Source: a virus
Taxonomy: Duplodnaviria > Heunggongvirae > Uroviricota > Caudoviricetes
Strand: one strand, 5' to 3'
Virus record (IMG/VR): IMGVR_UViG_2778261543_000003
Span: 1-15,756 of that record
DNA length: 15,756 nucleotides
Shown here: positions 669 to 15,573 of the stretch, one piece after another
How the letters are laid out: each line of letters starts with the position of its first letter
Numbering within the stretch: the stretch's first letter is position 1
Program-made: the position numbers and the translations under genes
Notes under the pieces: generated by a model
Seen by the model: the letters and a program-made list of their open reading frames with translations, nothing else
Database searches by the model: none
Told to the model about the DNA's origin: nothing

Positions 669-965
669 TCAGTCATTACTGATAGCGCCATAGCGTGAGC
701 GGTAATTACGCAGGCGCGGGTCGATATATTCAGGGAAGTGGGTATATGTGGCTTTGCGGAATGGTCGGATTGATGTCTGGTAAATTCGATCGCGTTCTTC
801 TTTCTCTGCAAGCCATATGCAGTGGCGAAACTCCTTTTCCTCTTTCGTTTCCTGCGGTAGCGACATTATCCGGTCGTAGTTTTTCCTGAATTTATCCAGC
901 ACCTCCGATACGGAATTGCCGGAACAGCGGCGCGCGTCATCCGCACCATACAAAGGCGCTGGCAT
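669..965 (-). CDS. Hypothetical phage protein (98 aa)
   Basis: AGGAG 6 nt upstream of the ATG at 965; tightly packed between the exonuclease and downstream genes on the same strand. Confidence 0.6.
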
Positions 966-981
966 GTTTTTCTCCTGTTGA

Positions 982-1530
982 TTATTTAGCTAACTTTTTC
1001 CAGATCGCTGAAACGTATTTGGCTTGGTGGATGGCATCATCAAGCGCGTTGTGGCGAGTTCCTTTGAATGGCATATCTCGCTTAGGGTTGAATCCTATTA
1101 CCTTTCCAAGCTCGACGATTGTTCTTACGTCGCGGTCATTCCACCACTGCCATGGAACTGGCTGCCCTGTCAGCGAATAACTGTTTCGGAGAATAACGCA
1201 GTCAAATGATGCTCCATTCCCCCAAACCTGAACGAATTTGTGGTTAGCGTTCTTTATGATGAATTCAGATAACCATGAAAGAGCCGTTGAAAGCTCCTGA
1301 GTGTTGCTGGTTAGCGATTTTCTGGCTTCTTCACTCTGTTCCAGCCACCATAAAATCGTTGAAGCGTCAGGACGCGCTCGATATCGCATTGATGATTCAA
1401 GCGAGATATTTACCGAGAACTCTTCTCCTGTTTCTCCGGTATTCGGGTCAAAGAATACCGCCCCAATAGAAATAACTGGCGCGTATGGCCCGTTGCCCAT
1501 TGTTTCAAGGTCAACCATCAAGTGATTCAT
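982..1530 (-). CDS. DEDDh-type 3'-5' exonuclease (DnaQ-like fold)
   Basis: N-terminal MVDLETMG (Exo I D-x-E motif) and C-terminal HNALDDA (Exo III H-x4-D motif); sits directly downstream of SSB. Confidence 0.8.
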   Translation of the reverse strand: MNHLMVDLETMGNGPYAPVISIGAVFFDPNTGETGEEFSVNISLESSMRYRARPDASTILWWLEQSEEARKSLTSNTQELSTALSWLSEFIIKNANHKFVQVWGNGASFDCVILRNSYSLTGQPVPWQWWNDRDVRTIVELGKVIGFNPKRDMPFKGTRHNALDDAIHQAKYVSAIWKKLAK

Positions 1531-1538
1531 GTAAGTCC

Positions 1539-2054
1539 TTAAATTGCGTGAATAGCGTGACGAGGGAAGGGGAGAGTTACTGGTGCAAAGGGGATATCGT
1601 CGTCAAAATCCATAGGTGGTTCGCTGTGATTTCCCTGCTGCTGAGGTTGCTGTCTTTGTTGCTGACCATTATTTCGCTGAGGTGAAGACTGTTCATTGCC
1701 TCCTTGCTTGCCACCAAGCATTTGCATGGTTCCACCAACGCCCACGATGACTTCGGTAGTGAACCGATCCTGTCCGCTTTGATCCTGCCATTTTCTTGTC
1801 CGCAATTTGCCTTCAAGATAAACCTCAGAGCCTTTTCGCAGATATTCGCTGGCAATTTCTGCCAGTTTCCCGCTCATTACCACGCGGTGCCACTCCGTCT
1901 GCTCCTTTTGCTCTCCAGTTTTCTTATCACGCCATTGTTCTGACGTAGCAACGGTAAGGTTTGCAAATGCCGTTCCTGATGGTGAATATCTGATTTCTGG
2001 ATCATGCCCAAGGCGACCAATAATGATCACCTTATTTACGCCTCTGCTTGCCAT
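1539..2054 (-). CDS. ssb: Single-stranded DNA-binding protein with extended C-terminus
   Basis: OB-fold N-terminus closely resembling E. coli SSB ([33 protein letters not shown]), Gly/Gln-rich linker and acidic tip [11 protein letters not shown], followed by 15 extra residues ([15 protein letters not shown]). Confidence 0.9.
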
Positions 2055-2762
2055 TTATGCCGCCTGTTTTAGTTCGTTAACTCTGATGTTCATTACCTGA
2101 ACGCATTTAGCCTGCGCCTCCTCGTTGCCAGCCATTAATTGCCAGTCACGCTGATAACGCTCGATGAGTTTTTTCTTGTCAGTTTCTGTTGACGCATAAT
2201 CGCTGAAGTCTTTCAGGATTTGTTCGCAGTCAACCGATGGAGATTTCTGGTTGGTATTTTCTGGTGATGGTTTGTTATCTGATGCTGGGATTGCCCATCC
2301 CGGCAGCGATGGAGGGAGCCAGTAAAATCCTGTTCCATCCTTGAGTTTTGCCCTGTGCCATCCCTGCTTTTTATCGAGAGATGTTTGTGCGAAACCTTCC
2401 TCAAGGTTATACAGATACCGACCGATTCCCCATTGAACGGCAGCACGCTTCATTGCACCGGAACGACCACCTTTGACGGCTTCTACCTGCGTGTTTTCAG
2501 CAGCATCCCATTTGGTTACCCATTCGGAATCAATCTTGATTGATATGCCGCATTCAACTCCGCCGTTGTTGGGAATATCGCGGTATTCATTGCGCCATCC
2601 TGCTTTGCCGCAAACATCGTCCAGGCGTTTCATGATTGCCCGGTTCGTGGCATAAGCCAGCACCATAGCCCACACTTTGCCATCGCGTGTTTTACCGCTT
2701 TGCTGTATTCGCCATTCGATATCTTCAGGGCTGAATGGCTCATCGAATTTATTCAAATCCAT
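2055..2762 (-). CDS. Rad52-family single-strand annealing protein (Sak-like recombinase)
   Basis: Motif GGRSGAMKRAAVQWGIGRYLYNL resembles the conserved Rad52/Sak hairpin region; gene is adjacent to SSB and an exonuclease; stop TAA abuts the ssb ATG. Confidence 0.65.
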   Translation of the reverse strand: MDLNKFDEPFSPEDIEWRIQQSGKTRDGKVWAMVLAYATNRAIMKRLDDVCGKAGWRNEYRDIPNNGGVECGISIKIDSEWVTKWDAAENTQVEAVKGGRSGAMKRAAVQWGIGRYLYNLEEGFAQTSLDKKQGWHRAKLKDGTGFYWLPPSLPGWAIPASDNKPSPENTNQKSPSVDCEQILKDFSDYASTETDKKKLIERYQRDWQLMAGNEEAQAKCVQVMNIRVNELKQAA

Positions 2763-3288: not shown

Positions 3289-3363
3289 GGGTAACTCCTT
3301 ATATTTGATTGCATAACGAAAACGCCTCGAGTGAAGCGTTATTGGTATGCGGTAAAGCCGCAC

Positions 3364-3732
3364 TCAGGCGGCCTTGATCGTCATATCATCTGAATCAAAT
3401 ATTCCTGATGTATCGATATCGGTAATTTTTATTCCTTCACTACCATCCATTGGAGGCCATCCTTCCTGACCATTTCCATCATTCCAGTCGAACTCACACA
3501 CAACACCATATGCATTTAAGTCGCTTGAAATTGCTATAAGCAGAGCATGTTGCGCCAGCATGATTAATACAGCATTTAATACAGAGCCGTGTTTATTTAG
3601 TCGGTATTCAGAGTCTGACCAGAAATTATTAATCTGGTGAAGTTTTTCCTCTGTCATTACGTCATGGTCGATTTCAATTTCTATTGATGCTTTCCAGTCG
3701 TAATCAATGATGTATTTTTTGATGTTTGACAT
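3364..3732 (-). CDS. Strongly acidic hypothetical protein (122 aa)
   Basis: Clean ORF with GAGGAA upstream; by my count about 22 Asp/Glu against about 8 Lys/Arg; lies between the pL-proximal cassette and the recombination module. Confidence 0.7.
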   Translation of the reverse strand: MSNIKKYIIDYDWKASIEIEIDHDVMTEEKLHQINNFWSDSEYRLNKHGSVLNAVLIMLAQHALLIAISSDLNAYGVVCEFDWNDGNGQEGWPPMDGSEGIKITDIDTSGIFDSDDMTIKAA

Positions 3733-3750
3733 CTATTCATTTCCTCATAG

Positions 3751-3778
3751 ATAAAAAATCGCCCTCACATTGGAGGGC
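3751..3778 (-). terminator. Intrinsic terminator (minus strand) between the AT-rich cassette and the acidic-protein gene
   Basis: Plus-strand ataaaaaatc-GCCCTC-acattg-GAGGGC; on the minus strand a 6-bp GC stem followed by a run of 6 U. Confidence 0.6.
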
Positions 3779-3884
3779 AAAGAAGATTTCCAATAATCAG
3801 AACAAGTCGGCTCCTGTTTAGTTACGAGCGACATTGCTCCGTGTATTCACTCGTTGGAATGAATGCACAGTGCTTATTCGCAGT

Positions 3885-4211
3885 CTACATAATCATTCCG
3901 GTTATTATTACCATTTCAATATCACTATCTTTCATAATGATTGGAGTTGAGTTATCAACTTTACTTTTACTCCATTTTCCTGCATCAGTTTTTACCGCTC
4001 CACAATAAGAAAGCCAATCATTATCACAATGTTCTGGATCGCTGATTCTGACAAGAACACGTGATAGTGCTTTTTCGATACTTTCATCACAATTAGCATT
4101 TGTGTAATTGCCGTGAGACAATTTTAAATCGTTAACTTCATCTTCATTGGCATCAAAAATATAGATTTCAGTCGACTCTGGAACATTTTCATAAACCATT
4201 AAAACTTTCAT
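3885..4211 (-). CDS. Acidic hypothetical protein (108 aa, start MKVLMVYENVPE); second gene of AT-rich cassette
   Basis: Start chosen at the ATG at 4211 (GGGGTAAAA-ATG) because the track's longer start at 4331 overlaps the upstream gene; region is visibly AT-rich. Confidence 0.5.
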   Translation of the reverse strand: MKVLMVYENVPESTEIYIFDANEDEVNDLKLSHGNYTNANCDESIEKALSRVLVRISDPEHCDNDWLSYCGAVKTDAGKWSKSKVDNSTPIIMKDSDIEMVIITGMIM

Positions 4212-4257
4212 TTTTACCCCATATTGTTTATGCCAAAAATAAAGTCGGCCATGCGGC

Positions 4258-4728
4258 CTAGTAGAATACCCAATTTTCTGCTTCTTGGTTGTGTCCAAAG
4301 TTATATTCAATATCTGGTGTTGATGTATCAATATTCTTCATCCCATCAACAAGAGTTGATACAACAGCCAAATCTTGTTTGATTCTCATTAAATGGTATT
4401 TCTTCCGGCGCAATAAACTTTCAATGGCAAGTTTCTTCGTTGGGAATGCAAAAGATCTTTCTGCATTTTTTGCTACTTTCTTAATTGCATATCTATTTCT
4501 CCTTTGTTTCCATTCCTGTAACCACTGATTTGGTGCTGGTTTAAAACCAACAACCCAATGCGCAGGAACCAACCATGCATAATGCTCTGTCTGATGAAAA
4601 GCTATATATTGAAGTGCGAATATTTTTATCCCATCTTCTTCAACTGTCGCCTGGAATCTCCAGAAAACAGGCATTCCATCATGTTCAGTTTCTGATTCAG
4701 GAAAAGGTACGCTCCATGATTTTGTCAT
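4258..4728 (-). CDS. Hypothetical protein (156 aa) translationally coupled to N
   Basis: N stop TGA, then GGTGAGAT, then ATG at 4728; AT-rich relative to N; no family recognised. Confidence 0.7.
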   Translation of the reverse strand: MTKSWSVPFPESETEHDGMPVFWRFQATVEEDGIKIFALQYIAFHQTEHYAWLVPAHWVVGFKPAPNQWLQEWKQRRNRYAIKKVAKNAERSFAFPTKKLAIESLLRRKKYHLMRIKQDLAVVSTLVDGMKNIDTSTPDIEYNFGHNQEAENWVFY

Positions 4729-4736
4729 ATCTCACC

Positions 4737-5036
4737 TCAAATAAGTGGTTTGCTGCCTAATTTCATTTTCTGGCGACCAACACAAGTCACACCCATTTCA
4801 CTGCGTGGCTTGCGGTAGTAAATACGATTCTGTTTACTCTCGACTTCTTCTGCCTTCTTGCAGCGAAGGCTTCCGAGTGATGCTGCTTTGTCTGCTCTGA
4901 CGCAACCAGAGAGCTTTAGCGCATTTTTTCGCGCCAGTCGCTGCTCTTGCATTGCCTGTTCACGTTGAGCCTGTCTGCGTGCTCTGCGGCGATTTCTGGC
5001 GTTATCGTCAGCCAGATATGTAATGACTACTGTCAT
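4737..5036 (-). CDS. N: Antitermination protein N
   Basis: Arg-rich N-terminal motif (DDNARNRRRARRQAQREQ) and C-terminus YYRKPRSEMGVTCVGRQKMKLGSKPLI closely matching the lambda N C-terminus as I recall it; GGAGG 7 nt upstream of the ATG at 5036; nutL lies upstream. Confidence 0.75.
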   Translation of the reverse strand: MTVVITYLADDNARNRRRARRQAQREQAMQEQRLARKNALKLSGCVRADKAASLGSLRCKKAEEVESKQNRIYYRKPRSEMGVTCVGRQKMKLGSKPLI

Positions 5037-5076: not shown

Positions 5077-5196
5077 TTATTTGTTTTTGCGTTCCCACAT
5101 CCAGTCATCTACTTCAGACCAGATAGTGAAACCGAAGCAGATGGCGAATGTGGTAACTAAACCACCGAGAATTGGGTTGGTCATGATGTCTAACAT
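5077..5196 (-). CDS. Small predicted membrane peptide (39 aa, MLDIMTNPILGGLVTTFAICFGFTIWSEVDDWMWERKNK) in the N leader
   Basis: Not in the ORF track. GAGGAA 6 nt upstream of ATG; one hydrophobic helix plus a charged Trp-rich tail; lies between the leader inverted repeat and N. Confidence 0.35.
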   Translation of the reverse strand: MLDIMTNPILGGLVTTFAICFGFTIWSEVDDWMWERKNK

Positions 5197-5367: not shown

Positions 5368-5408
5368 TCCCGCATTTCGGCGGGACAATCCCATCAATGT
5401 TAAAGAGC
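5368..5408 (-). promoter_or_regulatory. nutL (boxA GCTCTTTAA plus boxB hairpin)
   Basis: Minus-strand GGCTCTTTAACA ... TCCCGC-cgaaau-GCGGGA; the same arrangement occurs on the plus strand at 7082-7125; boxA matches the lambda CGCTCTTA consensus. Confidence 0.6.
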
Positions 5409-5454
5409 CTGCCAATCTGTTCCGTTTGGCTACCAGCGTCCTGCTGATGGCTTA

Positions 5455-5496
5455 AAGATAACTTAGGTTATAGGTGTGGTCAATAACCTAATTTAT
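5455..5496 (-). promoter_or_regulatory. pL promoter with operators OL1/OL2
   Basis: Minus-strand TTGACC (5483-5478), 17-nt spacer, TATCTT (5460-5455); operator ATAACTTAGGTTAT at 5458-5471 overlaps the -10 and ATAACCTAATTTAT at 5483-5496 overlaps the -35. Confidence 0.55.
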
Positions 5497-5660: not shown

Positions 5661-5695
5661 GAAAAGAAAACCCGGCGCTGAGGCCGGGTGTTTTT
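5661..5695 (-). terminator. Intrinsic terminator ending the cI operon (potentially bidirectional)
   Basis: CCCGGC-gctgag-GCCGGG stem-loop flanked by a T-run on the plus strand and an A-run (U-run on the minus strand); starts right after the stop of the 5694-5990 gene. Confidence 0.7.
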
Positions 5696-5990
5696 AGTCT
5701 TTTCTTTTGCTTAGCATTTCGTCGATTTCTAAGTCAATACGATATTGATCTATTGCTTTTCTCTCGTTTGGGGTTGGTATTTTATATTGTTCAATTAGAT
5801 CTGTTGTGTATTTTATTTCATCTAATGTGATTTTTATATCAGAGAGAATCTCTTTTATATCAATTAGATGCTCTTCTTCTTTTGCGCGATTAGAGCTATG
5901 TTCAATCATTTGAGATAGCTTTTTACTAATGCTTAGCAAAACAAAAAGAATGATGATCAAAACAACAACAAAAACTATCAGAAATTCCAT
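5694..5990 (-). CDS. AT-rich single-pass membrane protein with coiled-coil-like C-terminal region, cotranscribed with cI
   Basis: GGAGGGATA-ATG RBS 40 nt downstream of the cI stop; hydrophobic N-terminus EFLIVFVVVLIIILFVLLSI, then a charged, periodic Ile/Leu segment; followed by a terminator. Confidence 0.7.
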   Translation of the reverse strand: MEFLIVFVVVLIIILFVLLSISKKLSQMIEHSSNRAKEEEHLIDIKEILSDIKITLDEIKYTTDLIEQYKIPTPNERKAIDQYRIDLEIDEMLSKRKD

Positions 5991-6030: not shown

Positions 6031-6738
6031 TTACCAACTATGAGACGACCAGAATACTCTGCCAATAATCCTTACGGTTTCATGAAATTCATCTCTATCC
6101 ATTACTTCATCCGGGTACTCTTCGCGATTTATTGATCTGATTATCACCGATGTAGGGGTGGCGATTAATGTTTTTACTCGTAACAAATCAGACTGGCAAA
6201 TAGCGTAGGTTTTACCATCTCTGATTGTGGTATCTTGCGTGTTAACACCAACAACATCGCCATCGTGAAGCGTTGGTTCCATGCTTTGCCCTACAACCCT
6301 AACTAGCTTGGCTGATCTTTCAGATACTCCCATCTTTTTCAGATAGTGCTTTCTGAAAACCAAAGAGAACTCCGATGATTCCTCTAGCTCGCAGCTACCG
6401 CTTCCAGCTGAAAGCGAAACGTTAAGAAGAGGCAACGCAACAAACTCGTCATCGTTTCTTTTAATGTCTTCCCATACCACAGCTTTTAAAGATGACTCAC
6501 GGACATTGGATGGTTCTTCATGTGCACCATCCCTCATTTCACCAATACCAGAACTAAGCCATTCAGGGCGCACTTTTAAAGCATTGGCTAATTCAACCAT
6601 CTTGCGAGATCCGTTTGTTTTACCGGACGACATCTTCTGTATGGCTGGCTGAGATATTCCAACCATGTCAGCAAGCTGTGATTGTGATACCCCTGCCGAG
6701 CTCATGGCTGCATTTAGTCTTTCTGCGAATGTTTTCAT
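6031..6738 (-). CDS. cI: cI-type repressor (HTH plus S24 LexA-like peptidase domain)
   Basis: HTH SQSQLADMVGISQPAIQKM; S24 signature GQSMEPTLHDGDVVGV and a downstream Lys (LRVKTL). Start taken at MKTF (6738) because the longer track start at 6768 would overlap an operator. Confidence 0.85.
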   Translation of the reverse strand: MKTFAERLNAAMSSAGVSQSQLADMVGISQPAIQKMSSGKTNGSRKMVELANALKVRPEWLSSGIGEMRDGAHEEPSNVRESSLKAVVWEDIKRNDDEFVALPLLNVSLSAGSGSCELEESSEFSLVFRKHYLKKMGVSERSAKLVRVVGQSMEPTLHDGDVVGVNTQDTTIRDGKTYAICQSDLLRVKTLIATPTSVIIRSINREEYPDEVMDRDEFHETVRIIGRVFWSSHSW

Positions 6739-6750
6739 ACCCACAAATCT

Positions 6751-6816
6751 ATAACTACGGTTATCCAAAGTAAAATAACAAAGGTTATTGCTATTTTTTA
6801 TAACTTGAGTTATCTT
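6751..6816 (+). promoter_or_regulatory. OR operator triplet with pR (and divergent pRM) region
   Basis: ATAACTACGGTTAT (6751-6764), ATAACAAAGGTTAT (6775-6788) and ATAACTTGAGTTAT (6800-6813) at 24-25 bp spacing; candidate pR -35 TTGCTA (6788-6793) and -10 TATCTT (6811-6816). Confidence 0.6.
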
Positions 6817-11352: not shown

Positions 11353-11950
11353 ACCAGCTCGAAGGAAATGCAAAATATGCAAGGAATGGTTTCACCCGGC
11401 ATTCTCAAATCAGTGGTGGTGCTGCCCGGAACACGGAACTCAATTAGCACTCGAACGACGAAGCAAAGAACGCGAAAAAGCGGAAAAAGCAGCAGAGAAG
11501 AAACGACGACGAGAGGAGCAGAAACAGAAAGATAAACTGAAGATTCGAAAACTCGCCTTAAAGCCCCGCAGTTACTGGATTAAACAAGCCCAACAAGCCG
11601 TAAACGCCTTCATCAGAGAAAGAGACCGCGACTTACCATGTATCTCGTGCGGAACGCTCACGTCTGCTCAGTGGGATGCCGGACATTACCGGACAACTGC
11701 TGCGGCACCTCAACTCCGGTTTGATGAGCGCAATATTCACAAGCAATGCGTGGTATGCAACCAGTACAAAAGCGGAAACCTCGTTCCGTATCGTGTCGAA
11801 CTGATTAATCGCATCGGGCAGGAAGCAGTAGAGGAAATCGAATCAAACCATAGCCGCCATCGCTGGACTGTCGAAGAGTGCAAGGCGATCAAGGCAGAGT
11901 ACCAACAGAAACTCAAAGACCTGCGAAACAGCAGAAGTGAGGCCGCATGA
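11345..11950 (+). CDS. ninG: NinG (Rap) recombination protein
   Basis: Near-identity over long stretches to lambda NinG as recalled ([43 protein letters not shown]). Confidence 0.8.
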
Positions 11951-11997
11951 CGTTCTCAGTAAAAACCATTCCAGATCACAAGGGAGAAGCCGCATGA
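11947..11997 (+). pseudogene. ninH: ninH remnant (16 codons, [16 protein letters not shown]) bridging ninG and Q
   Basis: First 10 residues match the lambda NinH start as recalled, then the frame ends after 6 more codons; ATGA overlaps with both ninG and Q. Confidence 0.4.
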
Positions 11998-12512
11998 GCA
12001 TAAGAGAACTAAACCTCACCAAAGAACAGCATGAGTGGCTGAATGGCTGGCTTGAACTGTGGGGCGCATGGGTTTATTCAGGTCGTCTGGAAAAGCGCAT
12101 GAGCAGCGTAATAGCGAAGTTCATGGAGAGCGTAGAGCCGGGAAGAGTTATGACAAGGCCAATGTGCAATGATGATGATGGAATGTTGATTTCTCAGGTC
12201 GTCGATTCCGTCATGTGCATTGACAAGAAAGCCTTTGGCATCCTCCTCAGCTACTACGCTCATGGTTCATCTAAGCGAGCAATTGCATCCTACTATCACG
12301 CGACTGCAAAGCCACGCAAGATGTGTGGACGTGGTGGCGAGGGATGGAGAAAACCTTCACTGGCAACCTGTAGAAACGAAATTGACGACATCCTGAAAGC
12401 GTCGTTATTTGTTTTGTACCAGCCAATGCAAAATGCTTTCAAAATGCGCAAACGTGTTGAGAAAGTTAAGCATGTTGCTGTTAAAAGCCTTGACATGCAA
12501 TTATCCATTTAG
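11994..12512 (+). CDS. Q: Late-gene antiterminator Q-like protein (non-lambda Q type)
   Basis: Occupies the Q position immediately after the nin genes and before the pR'-like promoter, tRNAs and lysis genes; contains Cys/His-rich segments; family assignment from memory only. Confidence 0.6.
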   Translation: MSIRELNLTKEQHEWLNGWLELWGAWVYSGRLEKRMSSVIAKFMESVEPGRVMTRPMCNDDDGMLISQVVDSVMCIDKKAFGILLSYYAHGSSKRAIASYYHATAKPRKMCGRGGEGWRKPSLATCRNEIDDILKASLFVLYQPMQNAFKMRKRVEKVKHVAVKSLDMQLSI

Positions 12513-12575: not shown

Positions 12576-12650
12576 GGGTCAGTCGTATAAAGGTCATTAC
12601 GGAAGGCTGTTAACCTTCTTATCGTGGTTCGAGTCAACGCTGTCCCGCCA
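12576..12650 (+). tRNA. tRNA-Asn-like (anticodon GUU), possibly degenerate
   Basis: Cloverleaf foldable by hand: anticodon arm GAAGG-CTGTTAA-CCTTC, T-loop TTCGAGT, 3' CCA; but one acceptor mismatch, one T-stem mismatch and an odd D-arm. Confidence 0.4.
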
Positions 12651-12655
12651 AATAT

Positions 12656-12731
12656 GCTGGTTTAGCTCCAATGGTAGAGCAGTCGCCTTGTAAGCGAATG
12701 GGTAGCGGTTCAAGTCCGTTAACCAGCACCA
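12656..12731 (+). tRNA. tRNA-Thr (anticodon UGU)
   Basis: 76 nt; perfect 7-bp acceptor stem GCTGGTT/AACCAGC, D-stem GCTC/GAGC with GG in loop, anticodon loop CTTGTAA, T-loop TTCAAGT, 3' ACCA. Confidence 0.75.
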
Positions 12732-12974: not shown

Positions 12975-13298
12975 ATGAAGATGCCAGAAAAACATGACCT
13001 GTTAGCCGCCATTCTCGCGGCAAAGGAACAAGGCATCGGGGCAATCCTTGCGTTTGCAATGGCGTACCTTCGCGGCAGATATAATGGCGGTGCGTTTACA
13101 AAAACAGTAATCGACGCAACGATGTGCGCCATTATCGCCTGGTTCATTCGTGACCTTCTCGACTTCGCCGGACTAAGTAGCAATCTCGCTTATATAACGA
13201 GCGTGTTCATCGGCTACATCGGTACTGACTCGATTGGTTCGCTTATCAAACGCTTCGCTGCTAAAAAAGCCGGAGTAGAAGATGGTGGAAATCAATAA
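12975..13298 (+). CDS. S: Holin (lambda S type, dual-start MKM)
   Basis: Essentially the lambda S sequence as recalled ([39 protein letters not shown]...). Confidence 0.9.
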
Positions 13299-15111: not shown

Positions 15112-15330
15112 CGGCAGTACCGCGAAACAACCCAAGCCAGTAAGTGGGGAAATAACACTGGCAGCCACTGAAAGATGAACCTCCAGCCTTATGGCAAAAA
15201 AGATTCTTTGTGGTGGCGGACTGATGGAAAGACATCGGATAGAATAAAACAGTGGCTAGGGTAGCTCCCGAAAAGCGGAATCGTCACCGCCAGCCACTGA
15301 ATCTATGACGAACAACTAGACGAGGTTGAT

Positions 15331-15573
15331 ATGAGTGAAATTGATAAAATAATAAATGGTACATGTAACTTTCAATCAATGCCGCCAGGTAGTTATGTAA
15401 AACAATGTAGTGAAATAGTTAATGGTCAGCTTGTAATGTCAAATGCAGGACGTGGAGTTTCTACGGATGAAAAAAAATCAATAAATGAAGCCCTATTAAG
15501 CATCAATGTTTTTGACTTGTTTCGCCCATCTTGGGTTATTTTGCAAAATAGTAGTCAATTCCCACATTATTGA
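15331..15573 (+). CDS. AT-rich hypothetical protein (80 aa)
   Basis: GAGG 6 nt upstream of ATG; markedly AT-rich by eye; no family recognised. Confidence 0.45.
   Translation: MSEIDKIINGTCNFQSMPPGSYVKQCSEIVNGQLVMSNAGRGVSTDEKKSINEALLSINVFDLFRPSWVILQNSSQFPHY

Follow-up and report, generated by a model that had tools for sequence, protein, structure and literature searches.

Here we report that two adjacent open reading frames (ORFs) in the early region of a lambdoid prophage are best read as two unrelated single-gene immediate-early accessory modules in a known hypervariable hotspot, whose products are probably inhibitors of host factors or of defence; we assign this reading a probability of about one half. 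The ORFs lie on the minus strand of a 15,756-nt stretch of viral DNA (Caudoviricetes; IMGVR_UViG_2778261543_000003, hereafter the window, in whose coordinates all positions are given), which represents the early region of a P22/933W-type mosaic prophage. The block under study (3885-4728, 844 bp) consists of ORF A (4258..4728, ATG at 4728, 156 aa, phrog_1636) and ORF B (3885..4211, ATG at 4211 and end at 3885, 108 aa, phrog_4658). The architecture of this locus and the independent mobility of the two genes are the parts of the reading that we hold with high confidence. Both families were already catalogued, and we place the two ORFs among the orphan cargo genes of the accessory hotspot between N and ral of lambdoid phages.

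A preliminary description of this DNA, made from its sequence, had presented the two ORFs as one cassette inserted downstream of the antiterminator gene N. The sizes given there (156 and about 108 aa, the second protein acidic) were correct, ORF B having an isoelectric point (pI) of 4.42, whereas the distribution of the genes does not agree with a single module. Our surveys covered 5426 complete E. coli genomes and 50,697 phage records. ORF A was present in 598 of the complete genomes (11%) and in 88 phage records, and ORF B, at ~97% DNA identity, in 16 of the genomes (0.3%), where it has other partners; the DNA of ORF B had no match anywhere in the phage collection. Not one of the 5426 genomes or 50,697 records contained both genes, no place in them covering 80% or more of a query made of A and B, and the A-B order recurred only in two draft assemblies (L011 and L018). 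Over 300 phage records, as well as 933W, have ORF A or the flank but no ORF B. Alignment to 933W presents ORF B as a clean insertion of ~375 bp, which extends from directly after the stop codon of ORF A to just past its own stop. The homology breakpoints fall at 4244-4260, in a hairpin just upstream of ORF B, and at 3751-3753, in the terminator, so that the ORF B module common to other prophages corresponds to ~3751-4259. In these prophages, ORF B is always the final gene before the conserved terminator and follows varying upstream genes, including Ral (L008), Nmad5 (L009 and L013), Ral plus Nmad5, proteins of 104, 107, 140, and 210 aa (the last one Cys-rich) from four further PHROG families, and a 67-aa orphan, none of which was related to ORF A or ORF B in profile comparisons. 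Synteny across related prophages thus places ORF B behind Ral, Nmad5, or other genes rather than in a pair with ORF A. In phage phi296, on the other hand, the order is N-x-x-Ral-ORF A-Kil, and ORF A, which co-resides there with Ral, is therefore a neighbor of Ral and not its positional replacement.

The 46-nt spacer between the two genes carries a further trace of this history. It holds a decayed terminator-like hairpin with a T-tract (4233..4258, minus strand; GGCC-GCAT-GGCC..TTTATTTTT), which forms the 5' edge of the ORF B module and was recognized by alignment; four pairs are left in the window, the fold is weak, and the terminator scan of the window did not report it. In sibling phages, the hairpin upstream of ORF B is an intact one of seven pairs (GAGGCCGCATAGTCGGCCTT TATTTTT), the copy in L009 being placed by the terminator scan at 3500-3519. 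The intact hairpin was found in prophages containing Nmad5 and in prophages containing Ral. Expression of ORF B may be N-dependent in phages with the intact hairpin and N-independent in the phage of the window.

The interval occupied by the two genes is the one that carries ral and sieB in lambda, as had been proposed. Window positions 3312-3873 are 98% identical to lambda 33483-34045, which comprises ea10, the terminator between ea10 and ral, and the associated non-coding region, and Ral is encoded in the same interval of sibling prophages; given this flank identity, ORF A and ORF B replace the lambda sieB-orf28-ral segment between N and the conserved flank. The flank begins with a conserved, structured non-coding leader or 3' untranslated region (UTR) between the cargo genes and the terminator (3781..3884, minus strand), which is common to lambda, 933W, HK022, and HK620. 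It continues into an intrinsic terminator (3751..3780, minus strand) with an 8-pair stem TTGCCCTCCAATGTGAGGGCGA (hairpin 3759-3780) followed by TTTTTT and a T-run to ~3751, and then into the ea10/DUF2528 gene (3364..3732, minus strand; 122 aa; PF10800, E=3.9e-47), itself 98% identical to lambda ea10. The hairpin starts 104 nt after the ORF B stop, in line with the distance of about 100 nt noted previously, and the homolog of this terminator in lambda separates ral from ea10 (lambda ~33930-33951). A 137-nt query from this flank (3748-3884) was present in 327 phage records, including lambda, HK022, and HK620 (in whose record the conserved flank is annotated as "terminator"), and was 95-99% conserved, while the terminator with the ea10 flank was present in 2239 genomes of the E. 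coli collection. The 139-nt stretch 3748-3886, which includes the terminator, folds strongly (minimum free energy -44.6 kcal/mol, z=-4.0, with 0 of 200 shuffled sequences folding as well) and has a much wider distribution than either ORF; its copies are too alike for covariation testing. It could be a small RNA derived from the 3'UTR or simply the recombination joint of the hotspot, and no known Rfam family was found within the ORF A/ORF B block.

Across related phages, the flanks of the slot are 96-99% identical and the cargo between them varies, comprising ORF A, Ral, Nmad5, phrog_1372, phrog_16670, phrog_3054, phrog_27543, and the 67-aa orphan. Homologous flanks that enclose unrelated alternative genes are the hallmark of an accessory region, and the sequence comparisons indicate that the interval from N to the terminator is a well-delimited accessory hotspot, with flanks conserved from lambda to the Shiga toxin (Stx) phages and at least eight unrelated cargo genes alternating between them; among these, Ral alone has an established job. 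This organization resembles the accessory regions of Silas et al. (bioRxiv 10.1101/2023.04.06.535777; Nat Commun 2025, PMC12373910) in its conserved flanks, here the 3' end of N with its Shine-Dalgarno sequence on one side and the terminator with ea10 on the other, and in the alternation of at least eight cargo families including Ral. The supplement sequences of both papers contained neither ORF A nor ORF B, whether as peptide or as DNA strings. The protein orf184 of a ral-containing region in that work was considered as a counterpart of ORF A or ORF B and rejected, the deposited model starting with MEALVVERSEDGYWT and being a different protein. An alternative cargo gene of the slot (L016/L017 3323-3955; P0127, P0135) encodes a 210-aa Cys-rich protein with several CxxC pairs, zinc-ribbon-like in appearance, which belongs to phrog_27543 and has no Pfam match; it was placed in the 90% protein cluster of ORF B despite its unrelated sequence, which looks like a clustering artefact. 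The 210-aa and 163-aa "members" of that cluster were therefore rejected as fusions of ORF B, being this unrelated slot protein.

Both edges of the slot appear to be mosaic joints. On one side, the sequence comparison identifies the terminator at 3751..3780 as a recombination joint. On the other side lies N (4737..5036, minus strand; 99 aa from MTVVITY, stop TGA, arginine-rich motif NARNRRRARRQAQ), which was assigned from phrog_271 (E=2.6e-35) and a weak Pfam N_peptide match (E=0.003). At the junction TGAGGTGAGAT (4729..4739, minus strand), the stop codon of N is overlapped by a strong Shine-Dalgarno sequence, GAGGTGA, and an 8-nt spacer, GGTGAGAT, leads to the ATG of ORF A, exactly the arrangement (stop, 8 nt containing GGTGA, then ATG) that had first been remarked upon. 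Of the two ORFs, only ORF A abuts N, ORF B lying 46 nt downstream of ORF A with its own ribosome-binding site. In 933W, the identical Shine-Dalgarno sequence and the ORF A counterpart are found 58 nt past the N stop as opposed to 8 nt in the window, which argues that ORF A is independent of translational coupling. The 933W phage carries another N allele that ends earlier and in a different frame, its 58 nt before the ORF A counterpart being non-coding, and a sequence nearly identical to the last 17 codons of N in the window (4737-4790) is non-coding there (L001 2971-3032); the C terminus of N in the window has thus been built from the flank of the downstream module. The stop-plus-Shine-Dalgarno sequence, TGAGGTGA, recurs in locus L016 before a different first cargo gene. 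By these alignments, the N/ORF A joint is a mosaic joint as well.

Composition gives a more nuanced picture than was initially drawn. The G+C (GC) content is 0.372 for ORF A (0.287 at third codon positions) and 0.327 for ORF B (0.239), as compared with 0.490 for N, 0.482 for the Rad52-like recombinase gene, and 0.462 for the whole window, so both ORFs are indeed far more AT-rich than N or the recombination genes. At 0.357, the 844-bp block falls below all non-overlapping windows of its size (minimum 0.372, mean 0.473, standard deviation 0.034) and lies ~3.4 standard deviations below the mean, which confirms the compositional break on a windowed scale. The AT-rich run extends beyond the terminator across ea10/DUF2528 (0.382), and the same slot is AT-rich in lambda as well (ral 0.41, sieB region 0.40, ea10 0.39, against 0.50 for N). 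Low GC content is therefore a property of the slot rather than the mark of one recent insertion, and of the "compositionally distinct insertion" previously described, the distinct composition holds while the single insertion does not.

ORF A encodes a basic protein (pI 9.07, net charge +3) with seven Trp residues, which matches the phrog_1636 profile over its full length (1-156/156, E=1.2e-110). Its closest known relative is L0079 of 933W (ST933Wp19, NP_049479), with 98% DNA identity and 98.1% amino acid identity, in a homology block covering window positions 4258-4790. L0079 and its orthologs in Stx1- and Stx2-converting phages, H-19B, BP-4795, and phage 86 are of equal length, with 97-98% amino acid identity to ORF A, and L0079, like ORF A, lies directly after N and before the terminator and ea10; the window differs from 933W in having another N allele fused to the module and in having ORF B between ORF A and the terminator. 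ORF A is thus a member of a catalogued, uncharacterized Stx-phage gene family. Full-length relatives at 55-72% identity occur in Pectobacterium, Brenneria, Cronobacter, and Rosenbergiella prophages, and an exhaustive HMMER search gave 40 relatives, with ~25 remote representatives at 20-30% identity; homologs down to 25% identity retain the full length and the basic charge (family median pI 9.0). Three long repetitive matches (P0087, P0089, and P0090) were rejected as spurious low-complexity or repeat proteins. By tblastn against phages, copies were also found in Vibrio, Klebsiella, and Pantoea phages within arrays of small early genes, in one of which the ORF A relative adjoins a DNA cytosine methyltransferase gene; in a Salmonella siphovirus, the relative heads an operon. 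The family motifs comprise a Y-R-Y...G-v...ET...W/F region, which would correspond to a β-hairpin, followed by K-x-V-x-K...R-x-FAyPtK-x-x-A-x-x-S-l-x-x-RK. The predicted fold, a β-hairpin and then long helices, is an unreliable description given the mean predicted local distance difference test (pLDDT) score of 55.6 of the model. A match of a deeper ORF A profile to PNRC2 in the PDB (E=0.004) reflected a lysine-rich patch and was judged spurious, and a GIY-YIG nuclease identity (1zg2, E=0.12, requiring a 6-residue gap) was rejected because the would-be catalytic Glu column is not conserved. A Pfam scan of 28 family members returned scattered single matches only.

ORF B encodes an acidic protein (net charge -10) that matches the phrog_4658 profile over its full length (1-108, E=3.6e-38) and contains the conserved motifs of this family, MKvLiIxExIPExT, HGxYvN, GKW, and vDxVvxTGF. 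Homologs at 30-35% identity were found in 121 phage records, among them T4-like Straboviridae of Klebsiella, Enterobacter, Cronobacter, Citrobacter, Yersinia, and Morganella, where the gene is placed in the early rIIA-ndd-...-holin accessory region in all three T4-like genomes inspected. Relatives are also carried by Klebsiella Jedunavirus, Aeromonas Bielevirus, a phi92-like phage (among Ter genes), and one Burkholderia phage-plasmid-like replicon. The family is restricted to phages and is common to temperate and virulent ones, and its acidity is kept at 20-35% identity (median net charge -11). The ratio of nonsynonymous to synonymous substitution rates (dN/dS) is 0.07 against an 81%-identical allele, and the exact protein is encoded on 286 contigs of E. 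coli and Salmonella. The AlphaFold2 (AF2) model is compact and α/β (pLDDT 94.8, predicted template modeling score 0.86), and a fold search of this model against the PDB gave no match. A few alleles from E. coli and Logan assemblies (P0002-P0005) are frameshifted after about residue 50 or have a truncated or replaced N terminus; these could reflect genuine pseudogenes or else errors of sequencing in runs of A/T.

Regarding expression, both ORFs lie upstream of the hairpin at 3759-3780, the only strong terminator found by a consensus scan from pL to ea10, and should therefore rank among the first pL products, as had been suggested, albeit not as one inserted unit. The same kind of scan, which weak or non-canonical promoters can escape, found no σ70-like promoter before either ORF. 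We propose that ORF A and ORF B would be silent in the lysogen and would be made together with N in the first minutes of induction or infection, largely without a need for N antitermination. Both products are predicted to be soluble: no transmembrane segment was found in either, the maximal 19-residue Kyte-Doolittle mean being 0.56 for ORF A and 1.10 for ORF B as compared with 3.69 and 1.74 for transmembrane controls from the window. Each would act independently as a small stoichiometric binder of a host component, ORF B most likely inhibiting a host protein that hinders lytic growth, such as a defense component or a DNA-binding protein, and ORF A most likely having nucleic acid or a host protein as its binding partner at an early stage of the lytic program.

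A defense component is the leading candidate target of such early binders, ahead of a non-immune takeover role. In favor of counter-defense, Ral adjoins ORF B in sibling prophages and ORF A in phi296, the ORF B family is found in obligately virulent phages, and the cargo of the slot turns over rapidly. The operon that holds ORF A and ORF B also encodes Abc2, an anti-RecBCD protein. Accessory regions containing Ral have been described as hotspots of counter-defense-associated genes (bioRxiv 10.1101/2023.04.06.535777). On this logic of position and expression, we tentatively propose, at slightly less than even odds, that at least one of the two genes encodes a counter-defense factor. The fullest version of the proposal, which we consider doubtful, is that ORF B founds a structurally novel phage counter-defense family and that ORF A is a second, unrelated defense inhibitor. 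The ORF B family so proposed would be acidic and of ~108 aa, spread between temperate lambdoid and virulent T4-like, Jedunavirus, and phi92-like phages of Enterobacteriaceae and reaching Aeromonas and Burkholderia elements.

Several points weigh against the reading of the two genes as early inhibitors. Many early accessory genes target host physiology and not defense. Inference from position is weak, as the slot also hosts sieB and genes of unassigned role. A possible identity with housekeeping phage proteins was looked for, and neither ORF A nor ORF B matched an entry of Pfam, NCBIfam, PADLOC, or the PDB sequences; neither showed a profile or fold match to a known defense or anti-defense family, and their database names are always "hypothetical protein." Neither family was found in the anti-defense regions of conjugative plasmids or in mobilizable plasmids. 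The AF2 model of ORF A, built from a 24-sequence alignment, is poor, the promoter and terminator calls come from consensus scans, and the weak hairpin upstream of ORF B could lower its N-independent expression.

Comparison with characterized anti-restriction proteins did not bring the two proteins into a known class. Lambda Ral (PF11058) resembles ORF A and ORF B in being small, in being made early from pL, and in its place between N and the terminator/ea10 flank, but it has 66 aa and no sequence similarity to either; neither ORF had a Pfam match at E<=1, and their profiles miss the Ral ORFs of L008, L013, L019, and L023. ORF A is found together with Ral and hence cannot be regarded as a mere analog of it. 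ORF B is small, early, and acidic with conserved acidity, as are the DNA-mimic anti-restriction proteins Ocr, ArdA, and Arn, but at a net -10 it is only moderately charged for a protein of that class, and its model has no fold match in the PDB. With its conserved motifs H33-G-x-Y-x-N38 and P11-E12, ORF B looks more like a protein with a specific binding site than like an array of charges, and neither ORF could be assigned to the DNA mimics or to toxin-antitoxin systems. Nmad5, a frequent neighbor of ORF B, was considered as an anti-Tmn inhibitor and rejected, its published role being that of a gene in which a missense mutation allows phage escape from Tmn; the actual anti-Tmn protein is confined to Dhillonvirus. 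We found no paper naming L0079, NP_049479, WP_001554880, phrog_1636, or phrog_4658.

The strongest alternative is that ORF A and ORF B are host-takeover or regulatory genes outside immunity, which act on transcription, replication, the nucleoid, division, or the lysis-lysogeny decision and raise lytic yield in the manner of Kil, cIII, Ndd, or AsiA. The genes share their operon with Kil and cIII, T4-like phages have genes for Ndd-like nucleoid disruption next to the relatives of ORF B, the ORF A family is basic throughout, as would suit a nucleic acid binder, and neither protein resembles any known anti-defense protein. However, the fast turnover of the cargo and the patchy spread of the genes, present in 11 and 0.3% of complete E. 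coli genomes, point more to arms-race genes than to housekeeping takeover functions, and Ral is directly adjacent, so we regard this alternative as possible but on balance unlikely.

A role in superinfection exclusion or prophage-encoded defense like that of sieB, in which the genes would be expressed in the lysogen and block or abort other phages, is improbable. In lambda and P22, the slot does hold sieB; ORF A and ORF B are rich in AT and resemble morons, ORF B being located between terminator-like hairpins; and some neighboring genes of sibling prophages bear the annotation superinfection exclusion (gp17-like). SieB itself resides in the membrane and has a promoter of its own that is active in the lysogen. 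ORF A and ORF B, which occupy the same genomic interval as lambda SieB, are not membrane proteins by the hydropathy analysis above, in which the controls from the window do score as transmembrane, and they lack a promoter-like site upstream in the scan and a family match. PADLOC matched neither, and members of the ORF B family are widespread among obligately virulent phages, for which exclusion of the prophage type has no relevance. The moron concept of Juhala and Hendrix applies to lambdoid phages that carry an extra gene between genes adjacent in relatives. This describes ORF B in part: it is a single additional gene exactly between genes that are adjacent in 933W, where it is absent, it is more AT-rich than its surroundings (GC 0.327 versus 0.462), and in siblings it is bracketed by hairpins. 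Unlike typical morons, which are autonomous transcription units, ORF B shows no promoter-like site of its own in the scan, although hairpins flank its module, and it appears to ride the pL transcript. ORF B thus behaves like a promoter-less moron inside an accessory region of a familiar kind.

The model of the preliminary description, in which ORF A and ORF B entered by a single insertion as one co-functional module, be it a complex or a basic/acidic pair reminiscent of toxin-antitoxin systems, is very improbable. It can draw on the adjacency of the genes on the same strand, their shared AT-richness, their opposite net charges (+3 and -10), and the reappearance of the pair in at least two draft genomes (L011 and L018), but it is largely refuted by gene distribution, that is, by the occurrence of each gene without the other and of the two together in no complete E. 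coli genome or phage record surveyed. The discrete insertion of ORF B relative to 933W, the terminator remnant in the 46-nt spacer, and the entirely different taxonomic ranges of the two families also contradict it. That the two genes form an obligate functional pair is likewise highly improbable. The idea that one or both are chance ORFs in AT-rich DNA, for which the bare "hypothetical protein" annotation and the few truncated or frameshifted ORF B alleles could be cited, is already refuted by the dN/dS of 0.07, the confident model and the 286 contigs with the exact protein for ORF B, by the strong PHROG matches of both, and by full-length homologs in distant phages, which keep conserved motifs and charge down to 20-30% identity in both families; both ORFs are genuine protein-coding genes.

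The remainder of the window is consistent with this setting. On the minus strand, the early-left operon runs from a pL-like promoter and a nutL-like site through a 39-aa membrane ORF, N, ORF A, ORF B, the terminator, ea10/DUF2528, cIII, and Kil to genes for a Rad52-like annealase, SSB, an Rv2179c-like exonuclease, the Abc2 anti-RecBCD protein, DUF2737, and Ead/Ea22. The candidate pL promoter (5455..5483, minus strand; TTGACC, 17 nt, TATCTT) lies inside operator-like inverted repeats and was proposed from a consensus scan and its position relative to cI (6031-6768) and N. The candidate nutL site (5369..5409, minus strand), proposed by analogy with lambdoid nut sites, would consist of a boxA-like sequence, GCTCTTTAA (5400-5408), and a boxB-like hairpin, CCCGC-CGAAAT-GCGGG (5369-5384). 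Between nutL and N, the 39-aa ORF with a transmembrane-like segment (5077-5196, minus strand; phrog_7482, E=8e-25) would be the earliest product on the pL transcript. The recombination module (669-2762, minus strand) encodes the Rad52-like annealase, SSB, the Rv2179c-like 3'-5' exonuclease, and Abc2 (669-965, in the same operon as ORF A and ORF B) and has no lambda exo-bet-gam, which indicates that the left arm is a mosaic from P22 or another lambdoid phage joined to a lambda-type ea10-cIII-kil segment. Between cI and pL, at the position of lambda rexAB, there is a 98-aa ORF (5694-5990, minus strand; GC 0.29; phrog_18389, of unassigned role) followed by a bidirectional terminator (5670-5689). 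Its product has a single transmembrane helix at the N terminus and a charged tail that resembles a coiled coil; as a possible exclusion or moron gene expressed in the lysogen, this ORF is more convincing than ORF A or ORF B. Two tRNA genes (12576-12728, plus strand) are located between the Q antiterminator gene (11937-12512) and the holin gene (12975-13298). In Stx phages, tRNAs and then the toxin genes are found at this position, and because the window has no room for stx, its phage is a relative that lacks the toxin and has the tRNA portion of this locus. Further on, an Rfam int-alpA small RNA motif (15249-15311, plus strand; 42 bits, above the gathering threshold) lies downstream of a Rha-family regulator gene and is followed by an AT-rich 80-aa ORF (15331-15573, plus strand) with no Pfam match.

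If neither gene turned out to be a counter-defense gene, the result would be a clean annotation of two orphan early genes. ORF B combines a very confident model with no solved structural relative and has relatives in virulent Klebsiella, Enterobacter, and Cronobacter phages of the type used in therapy, and this model and phage range make it a cheap and well-defined candidate for anti-defense screens and structure determination. ORF A, found in 11% of complete E. coli genomes and in the classic Stx phages, is probably made simultaneously with N; if it is true that it overcomes host immunity, it would have a bearing on the host range of toxin-converting phages and on the spread of Stx phages across E. 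coli lineages.

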